From the sequence record MG383452: a stretch of DNA of 64,000 nucleotides. One strand, given 5' to 3'. Below, in pieces: positions 6,316 through 19,627 of this stretch. The DNA is from Escherichia phage FEC14. Numbering within the stretch: the stretch's first letter is position 1; the number at the start of each line of letters is the position of its first letter. The notes beneath the pieces were generated by a model, which did not search any database, was not told the DNA's origin, and worked only from the letters and a program-made list of their open reading frames with translations. The translations under genes were made by a program, and so were the position numbers.

Positions 6316-6537
6316 ATGAAGAGCTTCCAGGATTTCCTTGAAGACTCTTCTGCTCCGGCAACCACGACCGCCGATGTGGGGAAACCCGAAGGCGGTATGG
6401 TCAAGGAGCCTGTCAAAAAACCAAAAGATCTTGAAGAAGAGTCTGATTTTAAAAAGATCTTTGGCAACATTTTCAAAGATTTGGATTTATCCAAGGCGCG
6501 AAAATGGAATTTCAGGACAGGCCAATACGACGATTAA
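6316..6537 (+). CDS. small protein with capsid-targeting-sequence-like N-terminus (candidate internal head / prohead core protein)
   Basis: N-terminus 'MKSFQDFLED' resembles the T4 internal-protein CTS 'MKTYQEFIAE'; lysine/glutamate-rich 73-aa product. Confidence 0.45.
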   Translation: MKSFQDFLEDSSAPATTTADVGKPEGGMVKEPVKKPKDLEEESDFKKIFGNIFKDLDLSKARKWNFRTGQYDD

Positions 6538-6560
6538 AGAGGCTTCGGCCTCTTTTTCAT
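6538..6560 (+). terminator. rho-independent terminator
   Basis: 'agaggcttcggcctct' followed by 'ttttcattt'. Confidence 0.6.
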
Positions 6561-6624
6561 TTCCAGCATTGGGTGTATAATGAACCCGTTCCCCATGAGC
6601 GGAACCTAACTGAGGATATACCAA

Positions 6625-7134
6625 ATGCAATCTATGATCAAACGTAAAATAGAAATCTCCATGAATGCCCATGTCGATATGATCCAGCAGCTTGTGGCAG
6701 ATGCGTATGAGATACAAAAGGAACGTCAAATTAGGGGAGTGATAGACCCTATTTGCTCCGGCAACATGCTCTACTACAGAATGCTCCGCCAGACCGGACA
6801 TACAGCCGCTCTGAAGAAACTACTTTCTAAAAAGTTTCAGGTCGAAAACGACGCATATGTGTTTGGCGTCTTCCATACTTCTCGTGAACGTGATGCATTC
6901 TTCTATCCTTCCCGCAACCCTCAGACGGGCGAAGAATTACTTATCCCTGATGTCGACAAGAAAGAGAGCACGACGACAATCACCCATTTCATGGGGACCA
7001 GGATCGATAAGGCTAACATAATCGTGTTCTCTGACACTCTACATGATGTAAAACGTTTAGCCGCTGCCCGTGAAATGTTGCAGGATGCTCGGACCAGTCT
7101 CACAAATTTGACTTTAGTAGTGTTTCTGGGCTAG
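6625..7134 (+). CDS. hypothetical protein
   Basis: 169-aa ORF. Confidence 0.5.
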   Translation: MQSMIKRKIEISMNAHVDMIQQLVADAYEIQKERQIRGVIDPICSGNMLYYRMLRQTGHTAALKKLLSKKFQVENDAYVFGVFHTSRERDAFFYPSRNPQTGEELLIPDVDKKESTTTITHFMGTRIDKANIIVFSDTLHDVKRLAAAREMLQDARTSLTNLTLVVFLG

Positions 7135-7181
7135 ATATCTGTGTGGGGAGAGAACTCCCCATTTTGAATCGGAGGTGATTT

Positions 7182-7373
7182 ATGTTACGTTGCAAGAGAG
7201 GTTCCAACTCCTTTAAGTTGGGCATGCTGACTGGAGTAACGTTCATGATTGCTTTAGACAGCCTTGTGGGACTGCTTTCCCTTCCTGATTTCAGGATGGA
7301 ACGATTCATATTGTTAGTTCTATTTGGCGGCGTCTCGGTTATTAGTGCTTTGAAAGCGTACAAAAAGATCTGA
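7182..7373 (+). CDS. small membrane protein
   Basis: GGAGG SD; two hydrophobic segments in 63 aa. Confidence 0.5.
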   Translation: MLRCKRGSNSFKLGMLTGVTFMIALDSLVGLLSLPDFRMERFILLVLFGGVSVISALKAYKKI

Positions 7374-7414
7374 TTTAACTTACACACAGCAATTTTGATT
7401 TGAGACCCTATATC

Positions 7415-7900
7415 ATGCTCCCATTACTCAATGTTCCAAAAGAACGTATGACGCCGGATAGTGAAGGCAAGACCCATTACAACATATACAGTCGAAGCCG
7501 CACAGAACTAGGCAGATTCCTTTCCCATTTTGCATACCATCCCATGGATACTGTTGATGGTAATTTCAATTCGTTAGAAGGCTACTGGTATTGGCTAAAA
7601 TATCGCCACGACGACTTGCGTAGTCTTTATGGGAACGACGCCAAGCAATTTGGACAAACCCTGGCCAAGTCACGCATCGTTGTATTGTCCCCTGATGATC
7701 CCAAATTTAAACGAGACATTATCGCAGCGACGAGTCAAAAATTGCTGACAATGCCATCCAAGTTGAGATTCCAATTGGCCCACAGCCGTCTTCCCCTGAT
7801 TCACGCTTATGAACATCAGGGGAAATACAGTTTTCAAAACTCTATGGATTTTATCATACAGCATATTAACCGCTTCCGTCTAGAAGGATATTTGAAATGA
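7415..7900 (+). CDS. hypothetical protein
   Basis: ORF; first ATG at 7415 (the track start at 7400 is TTG). Confidence 0.45.
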   Translation: MLPLLNVPKERMTPDSEGKTHYNIYSRSRTELGRFLSHFAYHPMDTVDGNFNSLEGYWYWLKYRHDDLRSLYGNDAKQFGQTLAKSRIVVLSPDDPKFKRDIIAATSQKLLTMPSKLRFQLAHSRLPLIHAYEHQGKYSFQNSMDFIIQHINRFRLEGYLK

Positions 7901-8475
7901 ATTTTCTAAAAACTATCTTCAACACATCATATGAACTCAGCCAGCGCGATCCTAATCGTTCTCCTGTGTTTGTATATTGCAAACTCGTGGAAGAGTCTTG
8001 TGAACTATCAGATGTGCTTTATGGAATCGCTGCATCCGAACCCCTGAACGGTGAAGTGGCGGACGTTATCATCTCGGCTCTGGATCTATTATATGTTGTG
8101 GATTATCAACAAGTTCAACAACATGGGTCTATGACCAAAGAAGAAATCTTTGACTCCATGGTGTTTGCTTTGGCTACGGCCAATCACACAACTGATCTCA
8201 GCCAACATACGTTGGAGGATTATTGGTTCTGCAGTGGTGTTGAAACTATAGACAAATATCTTGCGATGGTTAATCATTACAAAGGCCGCATCACTCGTTT
8301 ACTGAACCAACCTCAACGTTCAGAAGATAATATGGTGGACCTGGTTTCAAATCTGATACGCAATACTGCCAAATTGGCGTGTGGATATAATCAAAACCAT
8401 ATCAACACGATCGTTAAAGTGGAACATGCCATAGAACACAAAGTGGAAAAATGGCGCACTAAATTTGGTCTATAA
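7897..8475 (+). CDS. MazG-like all-alpha nucleoside triphosphate pyrophosphohydrolase (putative)
   Basis: 'KLVEESCELSDVL' and 'EVADVIISALDLL' resemble the MazG EExxE...D metal-binding helices. Confidence 0.4.
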   Translation: MNFLKTIFNTSYELSQRDPNRSPVFVYCKLVEESCELSDVLYGIAASEPLNGEVADVIISALDLLYVVDYQQVQQHGSMTKEEIFDSMVFALATANHTTDLSQHTLEDYWFCSGVETIDKYLAMVNHYKGRITRLLNQPQRSEDNMVDLVSNLIRNTAKLACGYNQNHINTIVKVEHAIEHKVEKWRTKFGL

Positions 8476-8524
8476 GCCAACCCCATACATAATCTTGTGT
8501 GTTTACCATTGACGGGATAGGCCG

Positions 8525-10438
8525 ATGTCCAACAAAATTGATATTGAACGCAAATACAAAAAGCTCACTCACATAGAGCATATCCTACTTCGCCCAGAGC
8601 GTCATCTGGGCAGTATCCGTTCGTCTGTGGGGACGGTGTGGGTGTATGACCCAACCAAAGACAAAGTCATCTTCCGTGACAACTTTGAGTACTCCCCTGC
8701 GCTGATCAAACAGTTTGATGAAATCATCACCAACTGTGTTGACCACAGCAAGACCCCTGAGGGTAAAGGCTTGACGGAAATCACCGTCACGGTCTCCCCT
8801 ATGAACGGTCAAATCATCGTTTCTGACAACGGGGGTATCCCTGTGGTCAAGCATGGCGTCACCAATGAGTGGCTCCCTGAGATGTTGTTTGGCTCGCTCT
8901 ATGCGGGCAGCAACTTCAACGATGAGGACGAGGAGTACAACAACCAGAAGTCCGGCGGCCAGAACGGTGAAGGGGCTTCGCTCGTCAACGTGTTCTCAAA
9001 GTGGTTCCGCGTTGCTACCAGTGACGGCAAGAAGTCTTATACTCAGCTGTTTGAAGACAACATGAGCAAGAAGTCCAATCCGGTCATCGGCAATACACCG
9101 AAAGAGTTCGGCACCACTATTGCCTGGATCCCTGATTATGCGCGCCTGGGTGTTAAGGGGCTTGACCAGAACAACCTGCTCATGATTTACCGTCGTGCAT
9201 TCGAAGTGGCGGCATGCAACCCGCGCCTGAAGGTTGTTCTCAACGGCAAGCAAATCCGCATTGATCGATTTGGTCATTTCGTTGATTACTTCTACGCTGG
9301 CTCGGCTGTTGATGAAACGGATGATTGGTCTGTTGCTATCACTCCCTCATCTGGTGCGTTCATGCATGCATCATACGTGAACTCAATCGCCACGCACATC
9401 GGTGGACCTCACGTTGATTATGTTGCTGACCAGATCGTGGCGGCTATACGCCCTCAGCTGGTTAAGAAGTTCAAGACCGAACTGAAGCCAGCGATGATCA
9501 AGAACCACATGTCATTGTTCATCGCCGCCGACATCAACAACCCTCGCTTTGACAGCCAGACCAAGGAGCGCATGACGACTCCTGTGAGCCAGTTTGGTAC
9601 GTCCTACAAGCCCAGCGATAAACTGATTCGCAAGGCGCTTGAGTTCGTGACAGCAGGGCTGAGTAAAGAACTGGCTTCATTACGCAATGAACAAGAAGAT
9701 GCCGAATTTGAAAAGGCGAAGAAGGATATCAGCAAACGGGATTATCGTGAGATTGAGAAGTATTATCCGGCGACCGCCAGAGGCGACCGCAGTGGGTGTT
9801 CGCTGCTACTGACAGAAGGTGATAGCGCATCCAACCCTATCCTGAACGCTCGTGATACCAAGAAAATTGGTTTGTTCCCGCTTCGTGGTAAGTTCATCAA
9901 CTGCCTGAACGCCCCGCGCTCAAAGGTGATGGCGAACGAAGAATTCAAGAATTTATGCACCATTCACGGCGGTGCTGTGCCAGGCCAGCCGCTTGATATC
10001 AGTCGCTATCCACAGACCGTCGTGGCAACAGACGCGGATGACGACGGCATTCATATCCGTGGGTTGTTAATAACTCTGTATTGTACGTTCTGGCCTGAAT
10101 ACGTTCGTCAGGGTAGGCTGAAGCTCCTTCGTACTCCATACATGCGCGTGTGGTGTGGTAATATAATGCACGAATTCATGAACAATGCCGAATATGAGGA
10201 GTTCCTGAAGACACCCGACGCCAAGAAGATCACGAAGAAGAAATATCTGAAAGGTCTTGGCGGTAACAGCACTGAAGACTTCAAGCGTATTCTAAACAAC
10301 CTGGATGCGTATACTACGACGGTCACGCTGGACGATGGATACAAGCAGTCACTGAAGAATGGTTTCGGTGATGAGGCTGCTGATTACCGAAAAACCTGGT
10401 TTAGCGATGTTTGCCTATTTGAAACCGAGGATGAATAA
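8525..10438 (+). CDS. DNA topoisomerase II large subunit (GyrB-like ATPase plus Toprim; gp39/gp60-type fusion)
   Basis: 'HIEHILLRPERHLGS' N-terminus, GHKL motifs, Toprim 'LLLTEGDSA'; 637 aa, consistent with T4 gp39 and gp60 fused. Confidence 0.9.
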   Translation: MSNKIDIERKYKKLTHIEHILLRPERHLGSIRSSVGTVWVYDPTKDKVIFRDNFEYSPALIKQFDEIITNCVDHSKTPEGKGLTEITVTVSPMNGQIIVSDNGGIPVVKHGVTNEWLPEMLFGSLYAGSNFNDEDEEYNNQKSGGQNGEGASLVNVFSKWFRVATSDGKKSYTQLFEDNMSKKSNPVIGNTPKEFGTTIAWIPDYARLGVKGLDQNNLLMIYRRAFEVAACNPRLKVVLNGKQIRIDRFGHFVDYFYAGSAVDETDDWSVAITPSSGAFMHASYVNSIATHIGGPHVDYVADQIVAAIRPQLVKKFKTELKPAMIKNHMSLFIAADINNPRFDSQTKERMTTPVSQFGTSYKPSDKLIRKALEFVTAGLSKELASLRNEQEDAEFEKAKKDISKRDYREIEKYYPATARGDRSGCSLLLTEGDSASNPILNARDTKKIGLFPLRGKFINCLNAPRSKVMANEEFKNLCTIHGGAVPGQPLDISRYPQTVVATDADDDGIHIRGLLITLYCTFWPEYVRQGRLKLLRTPYMRVWCGNIMHEFMNNAEYEEFLKTPDAKKITKKKYLKGLGGNSTEDFKRILNNLDAYTTTVTLDDGYKQSLKNGFGDEAADYRKTWFSDVCLFETEDE

Positions 10439-12408: not shown

Positions 12409-12822
12409 ATGAAATTACTTGGATATTTTCGTTCTTTACCTACTGGATCTCCTAATGGGTGTCAGTTATACTCTGAAGTGAAAGGGGACGTGAACGACAC
12501 TCACATCGCCTTGTATGCTCGTGATATACCTGACCCAACCAAGTTTGATCGGCGTGTTGTGGCTGCTGCCAACAAATATGGTGATGTGATCGTTGTAAGC
12601 GCCCGACATCACGACAAATTGATGAACACGCAACTCAAACGATTGAAGGAAGCAGGTATTATCGAAACCACCCACACTCGTGAACAAGGGTTTATTGATA
12701 ACTATGGGCAATGGATGTCCCGTGAAGAGGCCGCTGTGGTCGCCCGTGAAGCCGGACAAACTAATCAGGTCCGTTTGAAGAACACTCCTTTCAAAGAACT
12801 CTTTTCCGAAGACCTCTATTGA
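12409..12822 (+). CDS. hypothetical protein
   Basis: 137-aa ORF. Confidence 0.5.
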   Translation: MKLLGYFRSLPTGSPNGCQLYSEVKGDVNDTHIALYARDIPDPTKFDRRVVAAANKYGDVIVVSARHHDKLMNTQLKRLKEAGIIETTHTREQGFIDNYGQWMSREEAAVVAREAGQTNQVRLKNTPFKELFSEDLY

Positions 12823-12871
12823 ATAAATTGGCGGTATAATTGCCGCCTAACCCCATAATGAGACAAATAAC

Positions 12872-13096
12872 ATGGCAAATGAAATTGGTGATATTGCCCA
12901 GTTCCGTGCTATTTCACGCCGCCTGAAATCGTATGGACTCGTCATCGAAGAAATAGATGAAGATGTTCAGGGTGTATTGGAAGGGATGTTTGGGAGTACC
13001 GTTGGAACGGAATTATTTGAACTTTTAAAGATGGCAGCTGATAACCAATTTGTTGAATATATTTCTGAACACGCTATTGATGGCCTGAATAAATGA
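12872..13096 (+). CDS. hypothetical small protein
   Basis: 74-aa ORF. Confidence 0.4.
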   Translation: MANEIGDIAQFRAISRRLKSYGLVIEEIDEDVQGVLEGMFGSTVGTELFELLKMAADNQFVEYISEHAIDGLNK

Positions 13097-13329
13097 ACGA
13101 GTTATATGAATTTGAACGCGTGTATGAGTCCGCTTCAGTTTCAGGATACATGAAACGATTATATCAAGAAATCTGTGTTCGTTTGATGATGCGAGGAATA
13201 TCTGTCAATTGTGTTATGGCACAGACAGACAGTTTTATTATGACACTCACTGACCATCGCCAGAATATGTGTATCATCCAGGTTAGCTGTGTCAACAACG
13301 AAATTATACAATGGAGACGTTACGCATGA
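13093..13329 (+). CDS. hypothetical small protein
   Basis: 78-aa ORF; start overlaps the upstream stop. Confidence 0.4.
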   Translation: MNELYEFERVYESASVSGYMKRLYQEICVRLMMRGISVNCVMAQTDSFIMTLTDHRQNMCIIQVSCVNNEIIQWRRYA

Positions 13330-13931
13330 CCACATATGTTATCACAAACGGCGATTTACTGAAAGCCGCTACGAGTTTTAATCTCATCAATGCTTTCGCT
13401 CATGGCGCAAATTGTTGGTCTGTGATGGGCGCAGGTATCGCCAACCATGTTCGATTGGATTTCCCAGAAATTTACCGCGCCGACCAATTAGATGAACGTG
13501 GTCCGGAACAACGTTTGGGGAACATGTCCTATGCGTTTGATCATGACACTGGTGTCTGGGGATTCAATTTGTATACTCAGTTCTACCCTGGTCCTAACGC
13601 ACGCATGCCTTCCATTATCAGTTCAGTTCAGATTATGTTTGAACAAGTTCACGATATCATTGAGGCAAAAACTGACGAAACAGTCTATGTTGGTTTACCC
13701 GCCATCGGCTGTGGCATCGGTGGATTAAAACTGTTTCACGTGGTGAGTCAGATTAATAAAATCGCGGAGACTATCTTCGAAGATACCAGGCGTCGTGTCG
13801 TACCCGTCTTTTATATCCGACAGGGTGACGGGTTTGAACAAGATTTACAAGAACTTTCCCAGATGGTAGACTACGGAATCTCTGTCGTCGCTAGTGAAGA
13901 AGATATCATCGAAGAGGAAGGTATTGGATGA
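13326..13931 (+). CDS. macro domain protein (ADP-ribose binding / hydrolase-like)
   Basis: Macro signatures: 'VITNGDLLKA...LINAFAHGAN', 'MGAGIANHV', 'GLPAIGCGIGGL'. Confidence 0.65.
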   Translation: MTTYVITNGDLLKAATSFNLINAFAHGANCWSVMGAGIANHVRLDFPEIYRADQLDERGPEQRLGNMSYAFDHDTGVWGFNLYTQFYPGPNARMPSIISSVQIMFEQVHDIIEAKTDETVYVGLPAIGCGIGGLKLFHVVSQINKIAETIFEDTRRRVVPVFYIRQGDGFEQDLQELSQMVDYGISVVASEEDIIEEEGIG

Positions 13932-14272
13932 AGCGTGAAATAACAGAAGAGATGCTCGCCAAAGCCGTTCTTCATCCCAAGGTGCGTTTTGCATTTATCC
14001 CCACACGTTTACACGATGGAAATTGGGTATGGCTGGAGCATTACGTTCGCGCTCCTATCGGCCTATATGCCCAACTCCGTTATGGCGGCGAAGTCGAGTT
14101 AAAACAATATCGCGTCGGCGGGGGATTAGGCGGGTTGGATGACGGGGAATATTTCCCACATCGCAATTTCGCCATGAACGATAATTCATATTTCAAAGTC
14201 GAGTATGCCACCGCTTGTGGGACATATCCTTTGAAACTCCTTTTAGAGAAAGCAGGGGAAACTGATGTATAA
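13928..14272 (+). CDS. hypothetical protein
   Basis: 114-aa ORF overlapping neighbours by 4/8 nt (operon-like). Confidence 0.5.
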   Translation: MKREITEEMLAKAVLHPKVRFAFIPTRLHDGNWVWLEHYVRAPIGLYAQLRYGGEVELKQYRVGGGLGGLDDGEYFPHRNFAMNDNSYFKVEYATACGTYPLKLLLEKAGETDV

Positions 14273-14897
14273 ATCTAATTTCTTGGCCGTCGCTGATAGC
14301 GAAACTCTCGGTCGTTGGGATGATGCTGTCATGTTGTCTTGGGCACAGACTATCGCCGACCTGACCAAGCGTTATACTCTTCAGCAGCTTGTTGTAGAGC
14401 GCACGACATTTATCAAACTGGATGTCAAAGAACAGATTGAACTTGGCCGTGTGAAAGACCAGGGCACTGTGGAATGGTGGCTGGGTACAGGTAAACGCAA
14501 CCCGTGCGACGCCGCCCGAGCTATCAGTCTATATCCGACCGACAAGGATATTTCTATTTTCAAATTGGCCGATGAAATTCGCAAGGGATGCCATCGCCTT
14601 GGGATCGACCCGCGATCGGTTGACTGGTGTGATAGGAATCTGTTTGACCTACGCAAGGCTCAGCACATCATTGAGGTGACGTGTAAGCAAGATTCCAACG
14701 AACCTTGGGACTATCACCACACATTTGACATCGTAAGCTGGCTGAAGGGTATTGGGCAGCAGGATCGATATGCTGGTATCAAGGCGTGGGAACTGGAAGG
14801 TATGATCTATCATGACCCTCGTTATGATGCGGCGCTTGACTGGCTACGCATTCAGAAAACCATGGAAGACCTGATGGGGCTGAAGGTGGAAGGATGA
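14265..14897 (+). CDS. dexA: DEDDh-type 3'-5' exonuclease (DexA-like)
   Basis: Exo I motif 'AVADSETLG' near the N-terminus; Exo III 'YHDPRYDAALD' near the C-terminus; 'TVEWW' resembles T4 DexA as recalled. Confidence 0.55.
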   Translation: MYKSNFLAVADSETLGRWDDAVMLSWAQTIADLTKRYTLQQLVVERTTFIKLDVKEQIELGRVKDQGTVEWWLGTGKRNPCDAARAISLYPTDKDISIFKLADEIRKGCHRLGIDPRSVDWCDRNLFDLRKAQHIIEVTCKQDSNEPWDYHHTFDIVSWLKGIGQQDRYAGIKAWELEGMIYHDPRYDAALDWLRIQKTMEDLMGLKVEG

Positions 14898-14973
14898 ATC
14901 TTTCCTTGTTTCATGGTTGTTTACAATCATAGTTTTCTTCATAGTCTGTGTTCAATATTTTGGAGGTTCTTAA

Positions 14974-15264
14974 ATGTTCTTTCAAATTGTCGGGGTGATC
15001 ACGACCATTGTTTTTGTTGCCATAACGCTTTGGATATTGTATTCTTCATTTATCCATCCGATTTTTCAGGCTCTCAGTATTACGCGTTGGCTCACAGCGT
15101 GTTCTTTGAAATCCGGAAGCGAATGTCCTTCTTTATCGTCCAAATGGAAATTCTTCAAATGGGCGTATGAAGTCGGAGGAGTCCGAACAACCAGATATTC
15201 AAATAATGTGGGGGAATGGTTTAGCATCGGCAATTGGCGTTTGTACGAATCTGAAGACAAATAA
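14974..15264 (+). CDS. membrane protein
   Basis: GGAGG SD; N-terminal TM segment 'IVGVITTIVFVAITLWILY'. Confidence 0.55.
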   Translation: MFFQIVGVITTIVFVAITLWILYSSFIHPIFQALSITRWLTACSLKSGSECPSLSSKWKFFKWAYEVGGVRTTRYSNNVGEWFSIGNWRLYESEDK

Positions 15265-15288
15265 GCCCCGAAAGGGGCTTTTCTATTT
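15263..15288 (+). terminator. rho-independent terminator
   Basis: 'aagccccgaaaggggctt' followed by 'ttctattt'. Confidence 0.6.
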
Positions 15289-15336
15289 GTATAATGTATT
15301 ATCATTGTACCATCATATCTTTATGGCGCACAACAA

Positions 15337-15633
15337 ATGAAAGAGCAAGAAATTATCCAGCATTGTATTCGCTTAGGAACATTAAAACCTCTCTATCAGG
15401 CTTTGCGTTTCAATGCCATTAAATTCAAACCTTTACCAAGAACTATTGCAACGTTCTTTGCCATGCGTTCTGTTGGAAAAACGATTTTCTTTGAGCATGA
15501 CATTTATTTTTATACAAAGATTAATGGCGAAGATTTAGATAAAATGATTTTCGTGAACGACGATAAAAATATGAAGATAAAAGTGGAAAACGAATTGCGC
15601 AGGATAAATGATTCTTTAAGAGGAATATTTTAA
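15337..15633 (+). CDS. hypothetical protein
   Basis: 98-aa ORF. Confidence 0.45.
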   Translation: MKEQEIIQHCIRLGTLKPLYQALRFNAIKFKPLPRTIATFFAMRSVGKTIFFEHDIYFYTKINGEDLDKMIFVNDDKNMKIKVENELRRINDSLRGIF

Positions 15634-16295
15634 TGGAAATTGTTGTCTCAGTATCTGATTGTGATTTTGTATACCGTGTTCTTCAAGGGGATGCTCCATT
15701 GCCGCAGAATAATCAAGAAGTGACGTTGTTCTGGTCTGGTGGGGTGGATAGCACATACATGTTGATTTGGTTGTTATCGAAAGGATATTCAGTTCATACT
15801 GTGTATTGCCACCTCGAAAATAATAAATTTAAATCTAAGCGCGAAAATTGGGCGAGGAATAAAATACACAACTGGATTAATAAAAATGCCCCACTTCTCA
15901 TGTATCGTTGGACACATCATCAAGAACCTATCAGTAGCATCAACGTCCCGAACGGTGGTTTTCGCGCTTGTTTAGCACAAGCCCCGATATGGTTATTAAA
16001 CACGCAATTTAAAGGCAGTGGCTTGCCTTCCACGTATATCTTGGCATATGTTAACGGCGATGACGCAATACACTGGATACCCGCCTTTAATAAAGTCATT
16101 GAAGGGTACAACATGATGACCAGAGACGGGGAAAGACCTATTGAAATTTTATATCCATTGATTAGTCTCAAGAAATCTTGGTTCTATCATCACATGTCCC
16201 CAATACATGACTTAATGACATGGTGTGAATTGCCAATTTTGAAAAAGAATTGTGATTGCCCTGCGTGTGTTCGACATCGCCATGAGTTATCATAG
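15633..16295 (+). CDS. PP-loop ATPase, QueC-like (7-cyano-7-deazaguanine synthase family)
   Basis: PP-loop 'SGGVDS' and a C-terminal 'CDCPACVRHR' cysteine cluster resembling the QueC zinc site; about 220 aa. The N-terminus is ~35 aa longer than canonical QueC, so the start is uncertain. Confidence 0.5.
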   Translation: MEIVVSVSDCDFVYRVLQGDAPLPQNNQEVTLFWSGGVDSTYMLIWLLSKGYSVHTVYCHLENNKFKSKRENWARNKIHNWINKNAPLLMYRWTHHQEPISSINVPNGGFRACLAQAPIWLLNTQFKGSGLPSTYILAYVNGDDAIHWIPAFNKVIEGYNMMTRDGERPIEILYPLISLKKSWFYHHMSPIHDLMTWCELPILKKNCDCPACVRHRHELS

Positions 16296-16297
16296 AG

Positions 16298-16639
16298 ATG
16301 AAATGTTCGGTTGTTGTAAATGACATCACGAGATTGATAAATCTTATCAAAGACGTCTTCCCACAACAGGTGGATGTTGAGTATGTTGGGAAGAACGGAA
16401 AGTGCTATCAGGTTGCTCTGGTTCTGAAGCATGTGTATCCTCAAGCAGAGATCCATTACAGTCAGATCGAAGGTCATGTGTATACTCTGATTGACGGACA
16501 TTACTACGACATCGAAGGCATCCACTTCAGTGTCCCACCAGACACGTGTTTGCTCGAACATAATAGAGGTCACAAACCGCATCGTTGGCATAAAGGGTTT
16601 GTGGACGTGCCGATTTTAGAATGGCTGAGGAAACCATAA
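16298..16639 (+). CDS. hypothetical protein (His-rich)
   Basis: 113-aa ORF. Confidence 0.45.
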
Positions 16640-17222
16640 TGGCGGGAATTGTAAAGCACCTTGGTGACACTCATCTTGGGCATAAGAAGGTCTTTAAACC
16701 GCGTGGATTTGATACACAGGAAGCCCATGACGCTGCGGTCATTGACAGTATCTTTCAGGGGTTGAAGTCTCGGGACGTTCTTGAACTGGCTGGTGATATA
16801 TGCTTCATCGGGGCTGAAGGGTTCATTCGCCTGATGCGGGAGGGTGCCAAGCGAAACATTGATGAGTTTAAGCGACGCCCCGTTCCCGATGACTGGCGTC
16901 CGAACTTTATCATCAAGGTGGCACAAGGCAACCATGACAGCTTTAAGATGTTGTTGTCTCTGTATCTGGACGGCTGGATTAGCTCCTTCGGCGCTATGTA
17001 TGAACGTGACACGCCTGTTGGCCGTGTGTTGACACGCCTGTTGGCCGTGTGTTGACAACACATGTTCCTTATCAATTAGACCGTTGGGCGTATAATATCC
17101 ATGGTCATCTTCACGAAAATATTCGCGAAGAGCGCGAATACCTGAACTGCAGTTGGGAACAATTCAAGCGTCCTGTAACCCTGGCTGAGTTGTTATACAC
17201 AAATTTAGGAATTGTATTATGA
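16639..17222 (+). pseudogene. calcineurin-like metallophosphoesterase, frameshifted by a 23-bp tandem duplication
   Basis: N-terminal part carries 'GDTHLGH', 'GDICF', 'GNHD' motifs and stops at 17053-17055. The 'HGHLHE' motif continues in another frame to a TGA at 17220-17222. Removing one 23-bp copy restores a single ~192-aa ORF. Confidence 0.75.
17008..17053 (+). repeat. perfect 23-bp tandem direct duplication (2 copies) inside the metallophosphoesterase gene
   Basis: 'gacacgcctgttggccgtgtgtt' twice in tandem, followed by a partial 'gaca'. Two track ORFs end in the same 'TRLLAVC*' with stops exactly 23 nt apart (17032, 17055). Confidence 0.9.
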
Positions 17223-17551
17223 AAATATTCTTTCCTGGTCAGAAAGTACCCGAAGAAATAGAAAAGGTCGAGTTATTTGGTTATAAAAGCGGTGATCCGT
17301 TCCTGCGATTTTCTTCACCATGTATCGTGAAGCGCAATCATGAAGGGTATTATGTGCGCCCAATCATTCTCATGGGTTCTATCATGACGCTGAGAGCCAA
17401 AACAGACTCCGTCGTTATTACCGGAAGTCCTAACATACCCAATGGGAAGACCACGCTCAATGGAAAGCCTATCCTGTCGTCTTGGGCGTTAATTGGATTT
17501 CTGTCTATAATCTTGTTTTATCGTTACCTTACCGACTTGGGGATCTTATGA
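17219..17551 (+). CDS. hypothetical protein
   Basis: 110-aa ORF. Confidence 0.45.
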   Translation: MKIFFPGQKVPEEIEKVELFGYKSGDPFLRFSSPCIVKRNHEGYYVRPIILMGSIMTLRAKTDSVVITGSPNIPNGKTTLNGKPILSSWALIGFLSIILFYRYLTDLGIL

Positions 17552-17898
17552 AAAAGCCACGCATCACAGGACATCAACTCTGCGTCCTTTTAGGAATGTT
17601 GAATTTTGAAAAAGGTGAAGCCAGACGCCTTTGTCATTGGTATTTCAATCCCAAATCTTGGACGAACGATAAAGGGAAAACGGTTTGGACTTTTCATGCG
17701 CCACCGATATCTGGCGGGTTTCGTTCTGTAAAGGGTGATCCATGGGATACGCGTTCAGGTCAATCCTTGTTGTCTAAAGGTCTGATCGAACCTGCGTTTA
17801 CAATGGTTCATGACAACTCTGAAGAGTATAAGCATTGGCCGAAGTCTGAAGTAACATTCTATAGACTTACAGACCTCGGTAAAGCATGTACTGAATAA
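17548..17898 (+). CDS. hypothetical protein
   Basis: ORF; internal ATG (MKKPRITGH...) overlaps the upstream stop. Confidence 0.45.
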   Translation: MKKPRITGHQLCVLLGMLNFEKGEARRLCHWYFNPKSWTNDKGKTVWTFHAPPISGGFRSVKGDPWDTRSGQSLLSKGLIEPAFTMVHDNSEEYKHWPKSEVTFYRLTDLGKACTE

Positions 17899-17916
17899 TA
17901 TTTTAGGTTATTGAAG

Positions 17917-17948
17917 AAAGGGGAAGGTATACTTCCCCTTAATTTATT
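17917..17948 (+). terminator. rho-independent terminator
   Basis: 'aaaggggaaggtatacttcccctt' followed by 'aatttatt'. Confidence 0.55.
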
Positions 17949-17961
17949 GGGAGAGACAAAC

Positions 17962-18303
17962 ATGATTTCATTAAAAGAAATGTACGAACGCCTCGAAGAA
18001 CTGAAATCTAAAGAACGTCTGTATTCAGAAGAGAATGCAGAAATGTCAGATCTTATCGAAAAAATTGCGTTGCGTGAAAAGTATCTTCAACGTTATATCA
18101 ATCACCCACCTCACATTGTTGAACGTGTGAACGTTGAACTGGAAAAACTGTCCCCAATCACGTATGACAAATTGGGTATGGATAAAGTCCACACGGCTAT
18201 CTCTGGTGTTGTGAACTCTATGTTGGCGTTGGGACAAGTATTTGGTCGCCAGGACCATGATGATCTTATTTTCTACATTGAGAAAAATGTGGTGGTCAAA
18301 TGA
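17962..18303 (+). CDS. hypothetical protein
   Basis: 'gggagag' SD before ATG (MISLKEMYERL...). Confidence 0.5.
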   Translation: MISLKEMYERLEELKSKERLYSEENAEMSDLIEKIALREKYLQRYINHPPHIVERVNVELEKLSPITYDKLGMDKVHTAISGVVNSMLALGQVFGRQDHDDLIFYIEKNVVVK

Positions 18304-18707
18304 AACGTTATCGCCTGAAGTTTGAGTTAACTCGAAGGGAAGACAACGAACTCATATATGGGGAAATTTTCATATATGATCCTTATGATACGGAATACAC
18401 TGAATGGCTGAAGATAATATTGGCTGGTGAAGTCGATAAAGTATACCGTGCCATTGAAAAGGACGCCAAAGGAGTATTAAGTTTTGGTCATCTTCGAGTC
18501 GCGGCCATGATTGGTTCAGCTTTAGAAATAGTGTCTGAAGCGATAGCCATAGATCTACCAGGGGAACATATCTTCATCCGTGAATCTAAAGTTGATATGG
18601 CAACGAATTATGTGATGAAATTGACCTTGGCAGAAAATATGGAAAATAACAAACCAAGCATTTTCCGCCGTTTCATGAACAAATTAAAGGGTGTTAAAAA
18701 TGATTAA
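18300..18707 (+). CDS. hypothetical protein
   Basis: 135-aa ORF with 4-nt overlaps on both sides. Confidence 0.5.
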   Translation: MKRYRLKFELTRREDNELIYGEIFIYDPYDTEYTEWLKIILAGEVDKVYRAIEKDAKGVLSFGHLRVAAMIGSALEIVSEAIAIDLPGEHIFIRESKVDMATNYVMKLTLAENMENNKPSIFRRFMNKLKGVKND

Positions 18708-19218
18708 ACCACGAATGATGTTCGCCCATATGCGATCAGCTGCAGCATATGGTGTAACCAGTTATGCTCGGCGTCTGCAAGTCGGTTGTGTTATCGTAAA
18801 CCCTGAAACTGATCAGCCTGTGGCTATCGGATGGAACGGAACGCCTCCTGGCATGCCGAATGTTTGTGAGATGGAACAACACGGGCAAATTGTTACAAAC
18901 CCGTGTGTCATTCATGCGGAGGAAAATGCTCTAATGCGTATCCCCGAAAATGCAGATGATTTCACAGGGTTGGTTATGTTTGTGACACATAGCCCATGCC
19001 CTGATTGCACTCAGAAGATCATCGACAACGGCAAGATCGATAAAGTATATTATCAAGAGCCATATCGTATCATGGATGGAATCAAAAGATTGATGAACTC
19101 CGGAATTGAAGTTTACCGGATGGTGGGCGATATGGCAATCCTTAAACACGTTTTCGACGATCAAGGCGAAGTCGGATACGAACAAATCTTATCCAACCCA
19201 GACAAAGTAAGGAATTAA
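18700..19218 (+). CDS. cd: dCMP deaminase (zinc-dependent cytidine/deoxycytidylate deaminase family)
   Basis: 'HAEENAL' and 'PCPDC' zinc-binding motifs; 'aaggg' SD before ATG 18700. Confidence 0.8.
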   Translation: MIKPRMMFAHMRSAAAYGVTSYARRLQVGCVIVNPETDQPVAIGWNGTPPGMPNVCEMEQHGQIVTNPCVIHAEENALMRIPENADDFTGLVMFVTHSPCPDCTQKIIDNGKIDKVYYQEPYRIMDGIKRLMNSGIEVYRMVGDMAILKHVFDDQGEVGYEQILSNPDKVRN

Positions 19219-19219
19219 A

Positions 19220-19627
19220 ATGCGTTATGTAGACCGCATGCTCGGCGAAAATGAACATGTCATCGCTTTCACCCGCCCGACTTGGTGGAGCGGTTTTTGG
19301 ATTTATGTTCTGGTTATTTTAACGATTATCCCAACATTTGGATTCAGTTTGTTATTTCTGATACCAACAATTTTAAATGTATTGACAACTGAATTCGCAG
19401 TCACCAACAAGCGTGTTATTGTCAAACGAGGATTTATTCGTCGTGATGCTGATGAACTCCGTCTTGGTAAAGTAGAAACCATTAAGGTGGACCAGTCTAT
19501 TACAGGCCGTATCCTGAAGTTTTCGACCATCAGTGTTATTGGTACGGGCGGTACTCGCCTGTTGGCTACAGGTTGTTCTAAAGGGAACGAATTCCGTCAA
19601 AAAATTTATGATCATCTGGGTGACTAA
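19220..19627 (+). CDS. membrane protein with bacterial PH-like (bPH_2) domain
   Basis: Two TM helices followed by 'TNKRVIVKRGFIRRDADELRLGKVETIKV'. Confidence 0.45.
   Translation: MRYVDRMLGENEHVIAFTRPTWWSGFWIYVLVILTIIPTFGFSLLFLIPTILNVLTTEFAVTNKRVIVKRGFIRRDADELRLGKVETIKVDQSITGRILKFSTISVIGTGGTRLLATGCSKGNEFRQKIYDHLGD

Follow-up and report, generated by a model that had tools for sequence, protein, structure and literature searches.

We analyzed a 64,000-nucleotide stretch of the genome of Escherichia phage FEC14 (sequence record MG383452; this whole stretch is hereafter called the window), and studied its PP-loop gene at positions 15633-16295. We found that the gene is real and that its product, so far uncharacterised, varies a known enzyme scaffold; this is no evidence for deazaguanine DNA in the phage. 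Sequence comparison places the protein within the QueC superfamily, but not as an orthologue of QueC, Cap9 or QatC, and supports a separate phage-restricted branch that is nearer Cap9 than QueC. With slightly more confidence than doubt, we read the protein as a compact single-domain ATP pyrophosphatase of this superfamily, from the phage branch PHROG 1550, which would act as an adenylating ligase or amidotransferase on another substrate and would not be a preQ0 synthase.

The original prediction, made from the DNA letters without database searches, described a QueC-like PP-loop ATPase without other deazaguanine genes nearby. Its description of the gene was borne out, and its suggestions that the partner genes lie elsewhere, or that the phage makes deazaguanine DNA by relying on host enzymes, were not.

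The PP-loop gene and the conserved motifs of its product

The open reading frame (ORF) at 15633-16295 on the + strand starts with ATG, contains its stop codon within these coordinates and encodes 220 amino acids (aa). The PHROG 1550 profile matched the protein over aa 1-219 (E 4.2e-82), and the gene was found in 194 phage records. We searched 1.84 billion representative proteins exhaustively with a profile and obtained 1,139 clusters (50% identity) with E<=1e-3, of which 473 had E<=1e-10. Thus, the ORF is a real gene and no chance ORF. Its orthologue in phage CBA120, whose 157-kb genome is nearly in register with the window, is orf028/gp024, which is 98% identical and has the same coordinates; the window thus corresponds to about the first 64 kb of a Kuttervirus genome of the CBA120/ViI type. 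Positions 15000-17000 of the window showed 100% identity to Escherichia phage vB_EcoM_JN03 and at least 99.3% identity to the other 19 best-matching Kuttervirus records (Ackermannviridae), for example Salmonella phages moki, ST-W77, PhiSH19 and SFP10. A proteomic study of a Vi01-like phage includes the product of the PP-loop gene in its list (PMC10892097).

An AlphaFold 2 (AF2) model of the 220-aa protein had a predicted local distance difference test score (pLDDT) of 83 and a predicted template modelling score (pTM) of 0.85. The gene and the features of its product are as follows.

15633..16295, + strand: gene for a QueC/Cap9-superfamily PP-loop ATP pyrophosphatase (ORF list, PHROG 1550, CBA120 orthologue, AF2 model, structural match)
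15633..15716, + strand: N-terminal extension, aa 1-28, with a helix at 9-17, before the first strand of the Rossmann-like fold (sequence, pLDDT)
15735..15752, + strand: PP-loop S35-G-G-V-D-S40, the pyrophosphate-binding motif, with the family-specific W34 just before it (sequence)
15813..15845, + strand: L61-x-N63-N64-x2-K67-x2-R70-E71, at the place of QueC YxQxHxxE (hidden Markov model (HMM) and HH alignments to QueC and Cap9)
16047..16076, + strand: Y139-V-N-G-D143-D144-A-I-H-W148, at the place of QueC YPDC and Cap9 YxDC (hhalign against the Cap9 profile)
16152..16175, + strand: Y174-P175-L176-x3-K180-K181, counterpart of Cap9 PF(x)4K and of the Lys conserved in QueC (alignments)
16224..16268, + strand: four-Cys site C198-E199-x7-C207-x-C209-xx-C212 of QueC/Cap9 type, presumed to bind Zn (sequence, alignment)

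To assess conservation, residues were counted in 19 Ackermannviridae-type homologues (near set) and in 147 distant family representatives (far set). The PP-loop and the four cysteines were invariant in the near set and near-invariant in the far set. Both motifs had been recognized in the original prediction, as an SGGVDS loop and a QueC-like C-terminal Cys cluster, and both were recovered, the former at S35-S40 and the latter at C198, C207, C209 and C212, with CxC and not CxxC. Its spacing is C-x8-C-x-C-xx-C, compared to C-x8-C-xx-C-xx-C in QueC, and the cysteines align with the Zn-site cysteines of QueC (PDB 3bl5) and Cap9 (9nto).

The N-terminus of about 35 aa had also been described as atypical. 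In the FEC14 protein, 34 residues precede SGG, compared to a median of 9 in the far set, so the atypical N-terminus is real and clade-specific. The extension, about 25-28 aa long, was modelled at pLDDT 88-95, and its residues V13 and V16 are invariant across the near set.

Among the far set, N63 (132/147), N64 (137/147) and E71 (145/147) were conserved, and E71 is the only residue of YxQxHxxE that the phage segment has in common with QueC. D143 was found in all 147 members and Y139 in 143, while position 144 carries D in 112 members and C in 22. P175 was kept in 145/147 and K181 in 146/147. Two further features stay inside the Ackermannviridae clade, namely C59, which is conserved nowhere else, and F110-R111. 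We identified a family signature, which reads [VI]-L-W-S-G-G-x-D-S-T ... Y-x-x-[IL]-x-N-N-x-x-K-x-x-R-E ... L-x-Q-x-P-x-W in its first part and Y-V-[ML]-[NG]-D-[DC]-A-x-S-[YFW] ... F-P-L-x4-K ... W-C-E-x(n)-C-x-C-x-x-C-x-[RK] in its second.

PHROG 1550 is a large viral family

All 41 sampled family members matched PHROG 1550. About 45 diverse contigs of viral origin, 5-358 kb long, yielded members of the family, and among its named carriers are Vibrio phage YC, Pseudomonas phages Noxifer and phiLBG22, Ralstonia phage RSL2, Burkholderia phages FLC6/8 and Mycobacterium phage Maco2. Most members have 190-280 aa (median about 220) and begin a few residues ahead of the PP-loop; the median isoelectric point (pI) is 6.6, and the proteins are not consistently basic. 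Lys/Arg-rich C-terminal tails occur in some members. No Pfam domain was found in the extensions of ten long members (300-435 aa), and by eye these extensions seem mutually unrelated.

Among 185,579 bacterial and archaeal species, with one genome per species, only one full-length cellular relative was found. The family is therefore almost exclusively viral and phage-restricted. The lone cellular relative (locus L069, 1886-11564) lies in OW818669.1, a 4.2-Mb metagenome-assembled chromosome, beside a 1,087-aa WD40-repeat protein and two identical-looking insertion sequence (IS) transposases of the rve family. This setting is mobile or island-like, with no que operon.

Hutinet et al. (2019) listed 'singleton QueC-like' phage proteins in Escherichia phage ECML-4 (YP_009101458) and Mycobacterium phage Muddy. 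These singletons belong to the same family as the FEC14 protein, with no difference in kind, and the gene of ECML-4, a Kuttervirus, matched a family member (P0034) in tblastn. In the literature we found no functional study of the PHROG 1550 family and a direct mention in Hutinet et al. (2019) only; the 2026 survey of PF06508 did not cover the phage clade. Thus, the RefSeq annotation of the gene and its singleton status were already known, and what is new here is that the family is large and almost exclusively viral, lies nearer Cap9 than QueC, and has its own signature and replication-module contexts.

Relation of the family to QueC, Cap9 and QatC

To determine the affiliation of the protein, we compared it with profile libraries. 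The QueC model (PF06508) was the best Pfam match, scoring 23.9 bits against a gathering score of 22 over aa 33-64 only. The Pfam model of ThiI was barely above its cutoff (22.3 vs 20.5 bits), and on the PP-loop stretch the models of ThiI, MnmA and argininosuccinate synthase scored nearly as high as Pfam QueC. In NCBIfam, the QueC equivalog TIGR00364 reached 18.5 bits against a cutoff of 150.3, and the models of tRNA-modifying PP-loop enzymes (ThiI, MnmA, TilS, TtuA) reached 11-20 bits, far under their cutoffs. PADLOC returned the generic QueC model alone, as a weak match (E 1.6e-6, aa 25-82). All of these matches are confined to the N-terminal PP-loop region, and the classical libraries therefore cannot tell the families apart.

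A search of the PDB with the single sequence gave no significant match, and a family profile was needed. The profile of 41 members, run against PDB sequences with hmmsearch, matched QueC 3bl5 (E 7.5e-9) and Cap9 9nto_B (E 2.9e-8) over the full length, and TtuA came next (1.8e-4). In hhalign, a profile of 167 family sequences matched the Cap9 profile at 99.2% (E 1e-18) and the QueC profile at 97.9% (E 2e-12). Cap9 was also the top structural match of the model of the phage protein. YcfA, a PP-loop enzyme of Erwinia amylovora with structures that include bound GTP (PDB 9kq6, 9kq9), has only 11% sequence identity to the phage protein, for which nothing pointed to thiolation chemistry or to a guanine nucleotide as substrate.

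The original prediction had proposed a comparison with QueC and other PP-loop models, in which the best profile match stayed with QueC-type models, so that the QueC-likeness was not refuted. Its idea of a different PP-loop enzyme holds insofar as the protein represents a distinct branch nearer Cap9. Membership in another classical PP-loop family (such as TilS, ThiI or PAPS reductase) was rejected.

We next consider the residues on which QueC activity depends. Libby et al. (2026) reported that Y35 (in YxQxHxxE), R99 (in VPxRN) and Y131 (in YPDC) are required in E. coli QueC, whose Ala mutants lose function (PMC13329287). In the phage family, the Tyr35 position is I or L in 120/147 members, and an Asn-Asn pair, together with an insertion of three residues, takes the place of the QueC Gln. 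The VPxRN positions are not conserved, being variable or Q116 depending on the alignment. From YPDC the Asp is kept (D143) and followed by D or C, and the Tyr-Pro is deleted in the Cap9-based alignment. In total, only E71 and D143-D144 are retained from the QueC motifs. Since the Tyr, Arg and Tyr needed by QueC are absent, 7-carboxy-7-deazaguanine (CDG) would not be handled in the QueC manner.

The protein resembles QueC (PF06508 cluster 1, TIGR00364; PDB 3bl5) in its Rossmann-like PP-loop fold, SGGxDS loop, the C-x8-C start of the Zn motif and length, and the two presumably have a common chemistry, in which adenylation would be followed by attack of a nitrogen nucleophile. However, the phage loop lies 34 residues from the N-terminus, compared to about 10 in QueC. 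A working QueC in the phage would use CDG made by the host enzymes FolE, QueD and QueE and raise preQ0 in infected cells, for example to keep the transfer RNAs (tRNAs) of host and phage that have GUN anticodons fully queuosine-modified. This is consistent with the best Pfam match being QueC, just above its gathering score, and with the QueC-like fold and Zn-type Cys cluster; CBA120 also encodes a tRNA-Asn(GTT), and at one distant locus (L018) genes for tRNA-Tyr, Lys, Tyr and Asp shortly precede the family gene. Nevertheless, we regard such an activity as very unlikely, because the protein is far under the equivalog cutoff (18.5 vs 150.3 bits) and the equivalents of Y35, R99 and Y131 in YxQxHxxE, VPxRN and YPDC are hydrophobic, variable or deleted. 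Such an enzyme would be redundant, as the host already supplies QueC. Unlike canonical phage QueC, the family gene never occurs alongside queD, queE, folE or dpdA, and tRNA genes lie within 6 kb of it in 3/37 loci only.

QatC of the QatABCD system offers a precedent. As in the phage family, its canonical QueC substrate motifs are remodelled, with the PP-loop and the four cysteines kept, and QatC, which lacks the canonical QueC motifs, does not complement a queC deletion (PMC13329287). This failure shows that remodelling of the QueC motifs goes with a change of function, and also argues against a working QueC in the phage. In contrast to the phage protein of 220 aa, QatC is about 400 aa long and has extensions at both termini that are essential, its own motif set and a Cys motif (C-x19-CGxCxxRR) that is absent from the phage protein. 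It is encoded beside qatA, qatB and qatD, whereas the neighbours of the phage gene are phage early genes.

Cap9 (PDB 9nto_B) is a QueC-family ligase that deazaguanylates proteins and belongs to the type IV cyclic oligonucleotide-based antiphage signaling system (CBASS); its QueC fold is minimal, with about 185 aa. Like the phage protein, it is a minimal single-domain protein of 180-220 aa with a PP-loop, a C-terminal four-Cys motif starting with 'CE' and a P-[FL]-x4-K motif. D117 of Cap9 hydrogen-bonds the deazaguanine base (bioRxiv 10.1101/2025.04.06.647259), and the invariant D143 of the phage family aligned with it in hhalign. However, the Cap9 signatures F/YxQ(x)5E, RN and H(x)4YxDC are not retained in the phage family, and no conserved residues correspond to the stacking residues Y115 and R86, the loop equivalent to Y115 being deleted. 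The Cys spacing is CxxC in Cap9 and CxC in the phage protein, and the N-terminal helix of the FEC14 clade is extra. Moreover, Cap9 is encoded by a defence operon, together with a CD-NTase whose N-terminal tail has the form M(G/S)G(G/S)GG and with the TGT-like Cap10, and the phage protein is encoded by phages; neither a CD-NTase/Cap10 partner nor a Gly-rich N-terminal substrate was found for it.

We also weighed a conjugation reaction like that of Cap9 or QatC. The E. coli and Salmonella hosts make CDG. PHROG 1550 proteins would be phage counterparts of Cap9 that adenylate host CDG or a related carboxylated base and ligate it to an amine, for example a protein N-terminus. They would thereby modify a phage or host protein, such as one of the replication machinery at its N-terminus, or disturb or sabotage deazaguanylation-dependent defences (type IV CBASS, QatABCD), for instance through depletion of CDG or wrong modification of their substrates. 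If true, viruses would be putting nucleobase-protein conjugation to a new use. We consider it unlikely, although Cap9 is the nearest solved relative in both the structural and the profile-profile comparison, the 'CE' start is kept, and so is the Asp aligned with D117, with Cys at position 144 in 22/147 members as in YxDC. QueC-family scaffolds have also been repeatedly repurposed for protein modification (PMC13279940, PMC13329287). Against conjugation speak the missing conservation of Y115, R86 and the F/YxQ motif, the weak PADLOC match to a generic QueC model, and the small adjacent ORFs, which vary between genera. No CD-NTase, Cap10/tRNA-guanine transglycosylase (TGT) or QatA/B/D-like gene is annotated in the CBA120 genome, and N-termini of the form M(G/S)G(G/S)G occurred only as internal or implausible starts in the ORFs of the window and of CBA120 40,001-157,304. 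The spread over very different phages and the position in replication modules are likewise unlike a narrow counter-defence gene.

Deazaguanine partners and virion DNA

Canonical phage QueC genes accompany queD, queE, folE and dpdA (PMC6884629). Neither FolE, QueD, QueE, TGT/DpdA nor a second QueC is annotated in the whole 157-kb CBA120 genome (RefSeq). When DpdA, FolE, QueD, QueE, gp07 and Gat-QueC of phage 9g were searched by tblastn against the window and the whole of CBA120, the best E value was 0.078. This agrees with the original prediction, which saw no QueD, QueE or TGT-like gene in the window. Its suggestion that the partners lie outside the window fails, given that the complete genome of CBA120 has none. 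We also saw no genes of the que/dpdA type when we looked at the neighbour clusters that recur at some 45 distant viral loci.

Published liquid chromatography-mass spectrometry (LC-MS) of virion DNA from ViI, CBA120, CBA6 and 1.255.O detected dA, dG, dC, dT and a single fifth peak (PMC5889632). This peak, at 301 Da, is 5-(2-aminoethoxy)methyl-deoxyuridine (5-NeOmdU) (PMC5889632). The nucleoside check proposed in the original prediction thus speaks against a deazaguanine role in DNA, with dG normal in ViI and CBA120; the high-performance liquid chromatography (HPLC) trace of virion DNA leaves room for trace-level modifications. The 5-NeOmdU pathway was rebuilt from ViI gp67, gp160, gp226, gp243 and gp247, with no PP-loop protein (PMC8989533). 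A role of the PP-loop protein in this thymidine hypermodification was rejected, as these five other ViI proteins suffice. M6-like phages, which have related hypermodification pathways, were absent among the tblastn matches to the PP-loop gene.

Taken together, a 7-deazaguanine DNA-modification role of the PP-loop gene is not supported in this phage, because the partners are absent, LC-MS of ViI and CBA120 virion DNA shows 5-NeOmdU as the only extra nucleoside, and the 5-NeOmdU pathway was rebuilt without the PP-loop protein. Reliance on host enzymes for deazaguanine DNA is very unlikely for similar reasons: no DpdA-type gene was found, the LC-MS shows normal dG and 5-NeOmdU as the one extra nucleoside, and the QueC substrate residues are not conserved.

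Proposed function

By analogy with QueC and Cap9, the PP-loop of the phage protein would hold the beta- and gamma-phosphates of ATP. A carboxylate or activated carbonyl of the substrate would then attack the alpha-phosphate, giving an acyl- or enol-adenylate and pyrophosphate, after which a nitrogen nucleophile (ammonia or an amine) would displace AMP. The four-Cys site, presumably with Zn, would be structural and close the substrate pocket. The substrate is probably a small molecule other than CDG, base- or nucleotide-like. Since the protein has a single domain and no RNA-binding module, and the median pI of the family is 6.6, a small-molecule or peptide substrate is favoured over tRNA or DNA. 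In unrelated phages, the gene lies within modules for DNA replication and nucleotide metabolism, and the enzyme therefore appears to work together with early and replication functions.

Several points weigh against an adenylating ligase or amidotransferase with another substrate. Neither substrate, product nor partner was found, and the chemistry is proposed by analogy. The invariant Asp aligned with the base-binding Asp of Cap9 may leave room for a deazaguanine-like substrate. The metal of the four-Cys site is assumed to be Zn and may instead be an Fe-S cluster. In the middle loops, the alignments to QueC and to Cap9 differ by a few residues, which makes residue equivalences such as R111 and Y139 uncertain. 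Moreover, no neighbour gene is kept across the whole family in the 60 viral loci whose ORFs were clustered; replication genes recur, and the replication-module context may merely reflect co-expression of early and middle genes.

The annotation of the gene matters in practice. Orthologues bear the RefSeq label 'QueC-like queuosine biosynthesis'. This label is attached to the gene in phage genomes by the hundred, those of Kutterviruses used in therapy and biocontrol among them, and may lead to a wrong inference of queuosine precursors or deazaguanine DNA. The nearest relative, Cap9, was recently shown to join a nucleobase to a protein. The substrate of the phage enzyme could reveal a new phage metabolic or protein-modification reaction, and the QueC scaffold would then have four functional branches, the phage family being the one after QueC, Cap9 and QatC.

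Genomic context

The neighbours of the PP-loop gene in the window are as follows.

15337..15633, + strand: 98-aa ORF upstream, whose stop overlaps the start of the PP-loop gene (TAATG) (ORF list)
16298..16639, + strand: 113-aa 'Phage YunG-like' gene (Pfam PF24591, E 1.2e-43)
16621..17222, + strand: calcineurin-like metallophosphoesterase gene ('Ser/Thr phosphatase') (synteny, CBA120 annotation, alignment)

No known family matched the 98-aa ORF, and its conservation does not extend over the genera of Ackermannviridae; the Klebsiella/Serratia-type relatives have a different small ORF there. The YunG-like gene is present in most, not all, Ackermannviridae loci. The metallophosphoesterase gene lies downstream of the PP-loop gene in 14/14 Ackermannviridae-type loci, either adjacent or with 1-2 small ORFs between. 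In the conserved order of Ackermannviridae, the PP-loop gene is preceded by genes for an exonuclease and a 96-aa membrane protein and then by a small ORF that varies. It is followed by the YunG-like gene in most cases, by the metallophosphoesterase and, a few genes further on, by a dCMP deaminase. Since the ORFs touching the PP-loop gene differ between genera, the gene has no obligate adjacent partner.

The metallophosphoesterase is intact in CBA120 (186 aa). In the window it is split into ORFs of 144 aa and 57 aa by a 23-bp direct tandem duplication at 17007-17052 (tgacacgcctgttggccgtgtgt, two copies). The duplication is either a frameshift that makes a pseudogene or a sequencing or assembly artefact.

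Strong terminator-like hairpins were observed at 15263-15280, where the hairpin is symmetrical and was called on both strands, and at 17918-17940. They enclose a block of six ORFs on the + strand, which comprises the PP-loop gene, its three neighbours listed above and two further ORFs of 110 aa and 138 aa; the arrangement suggests a single transcription unit. Across 12500-19500, 12 terminator-like sites were observed compared to 6.1 expected.

To examine the distant relatives, we used the clustered ORFs of the 60 viral loci. For distant contigs, the functions of the neighbour clusters were assigned by reading the sequences, with no profile search, and are less secure. On this basis, we found at least three distinct replication-module layouts across distant viral contigs. 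The first has an SNF2-type helicase, a small ORF, the PP-loop gene, a DNA polymerase and a Nudix protein. The second has UvsX, a FEN-type nuclease, a DnaB-type helicase and the PP-loop gene, and in the third the PP-loop gene adjoins a dCMP deaminase.

The replication-module position in many phages raises the possibility of base modification in nucleic acid. The enzyme would then resemble ThiI, MnmA, TtuA, NcsA or TilS, and would carry out thiolation or lysidine-like amination of tRNA, or act on replicating phage DNA. The Lys/Arg-rich C-terminal tails of some members and the tRNA with a CAU anticodon that Kutterviruses carry would fit such a role. However, the single-domain core of about 190 aa has no THUMP, TilS-type or other RNA- or DNA-binding domain, the C-terminal extensions of the long members match no Pfam domain, and the median pI is 6.6. 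Apart from the four-Cys site, the family has conserved no Cys that could serve as the catalytic residue of persulfide chemistry, C59 being restricted to Ackermannviridae. No further major nucleoside is seen in the virion DNA of ViI and CBA120, tRNA genes are rarely near, and the homology to QueC and Cap9, which are free-base enzymes, is far stronger than that to tRNA enzymes. We therefore consider base modification quite unlikely, and retain the reading of a small-molecule ligase or amidotransferase.

Genes for tRNAs were found within 6 kb of the family gene in three of 37 loci. At L018 (3416-5630), genes for tRNA-Tyr(GTA), tRNA-Lys(CTT), tRNA-Tyr(GTA) and tRNA-Asp(GTC) end about 370 bp upstream of the family gene; the Tyr and Asp tRNAs are of queuosine type, and this is a single case among the 37 loci. 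The 64-kb window contains no tRNA gene. CBA120 carries tRNA-Met(CAT), Asn(GTT), Ile(GAT) and Ser(GCT) at 136807-138162 (L066 46807-48162), outside the window. The Kuttervirus tRNA with the CAT anticodon could be a lysidine-dependent tRNA-Ile2, and its tRNA-Asn(GUU) is a queuosine-type tRNA.

We also made three minor observations. Two records under other names, OR844942.1 ('Enterococcus phage Efm 3-10') and MN871475.1 ('Pseudomonas phage Pa-sanjiao'), contain the PP-loop gene with 98.6-99.5% protein identity; they are probably mislabelled or contain contaminating Kuttervirus sequence. At four distant loci (L019, L021-L023, ~6440-8575), the family gene is immediately followed by an ATPase gene that appears, from its sequence, to have an intein-like insertion in its P-loop (GPPGC ... 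VHHN|SGKT). Finally, the 2,001-bp query of positions 15000-17000 aligned in two pieces spanning 2,449-2,450 bp in ST-W77, SPHG3, PhiSH19, Se_AO1, PMBT18, KE28 and KE30, which indicates that these seven Kutterviruses have an insertion of about 448 bp in the equivalent region that is absent from the window.

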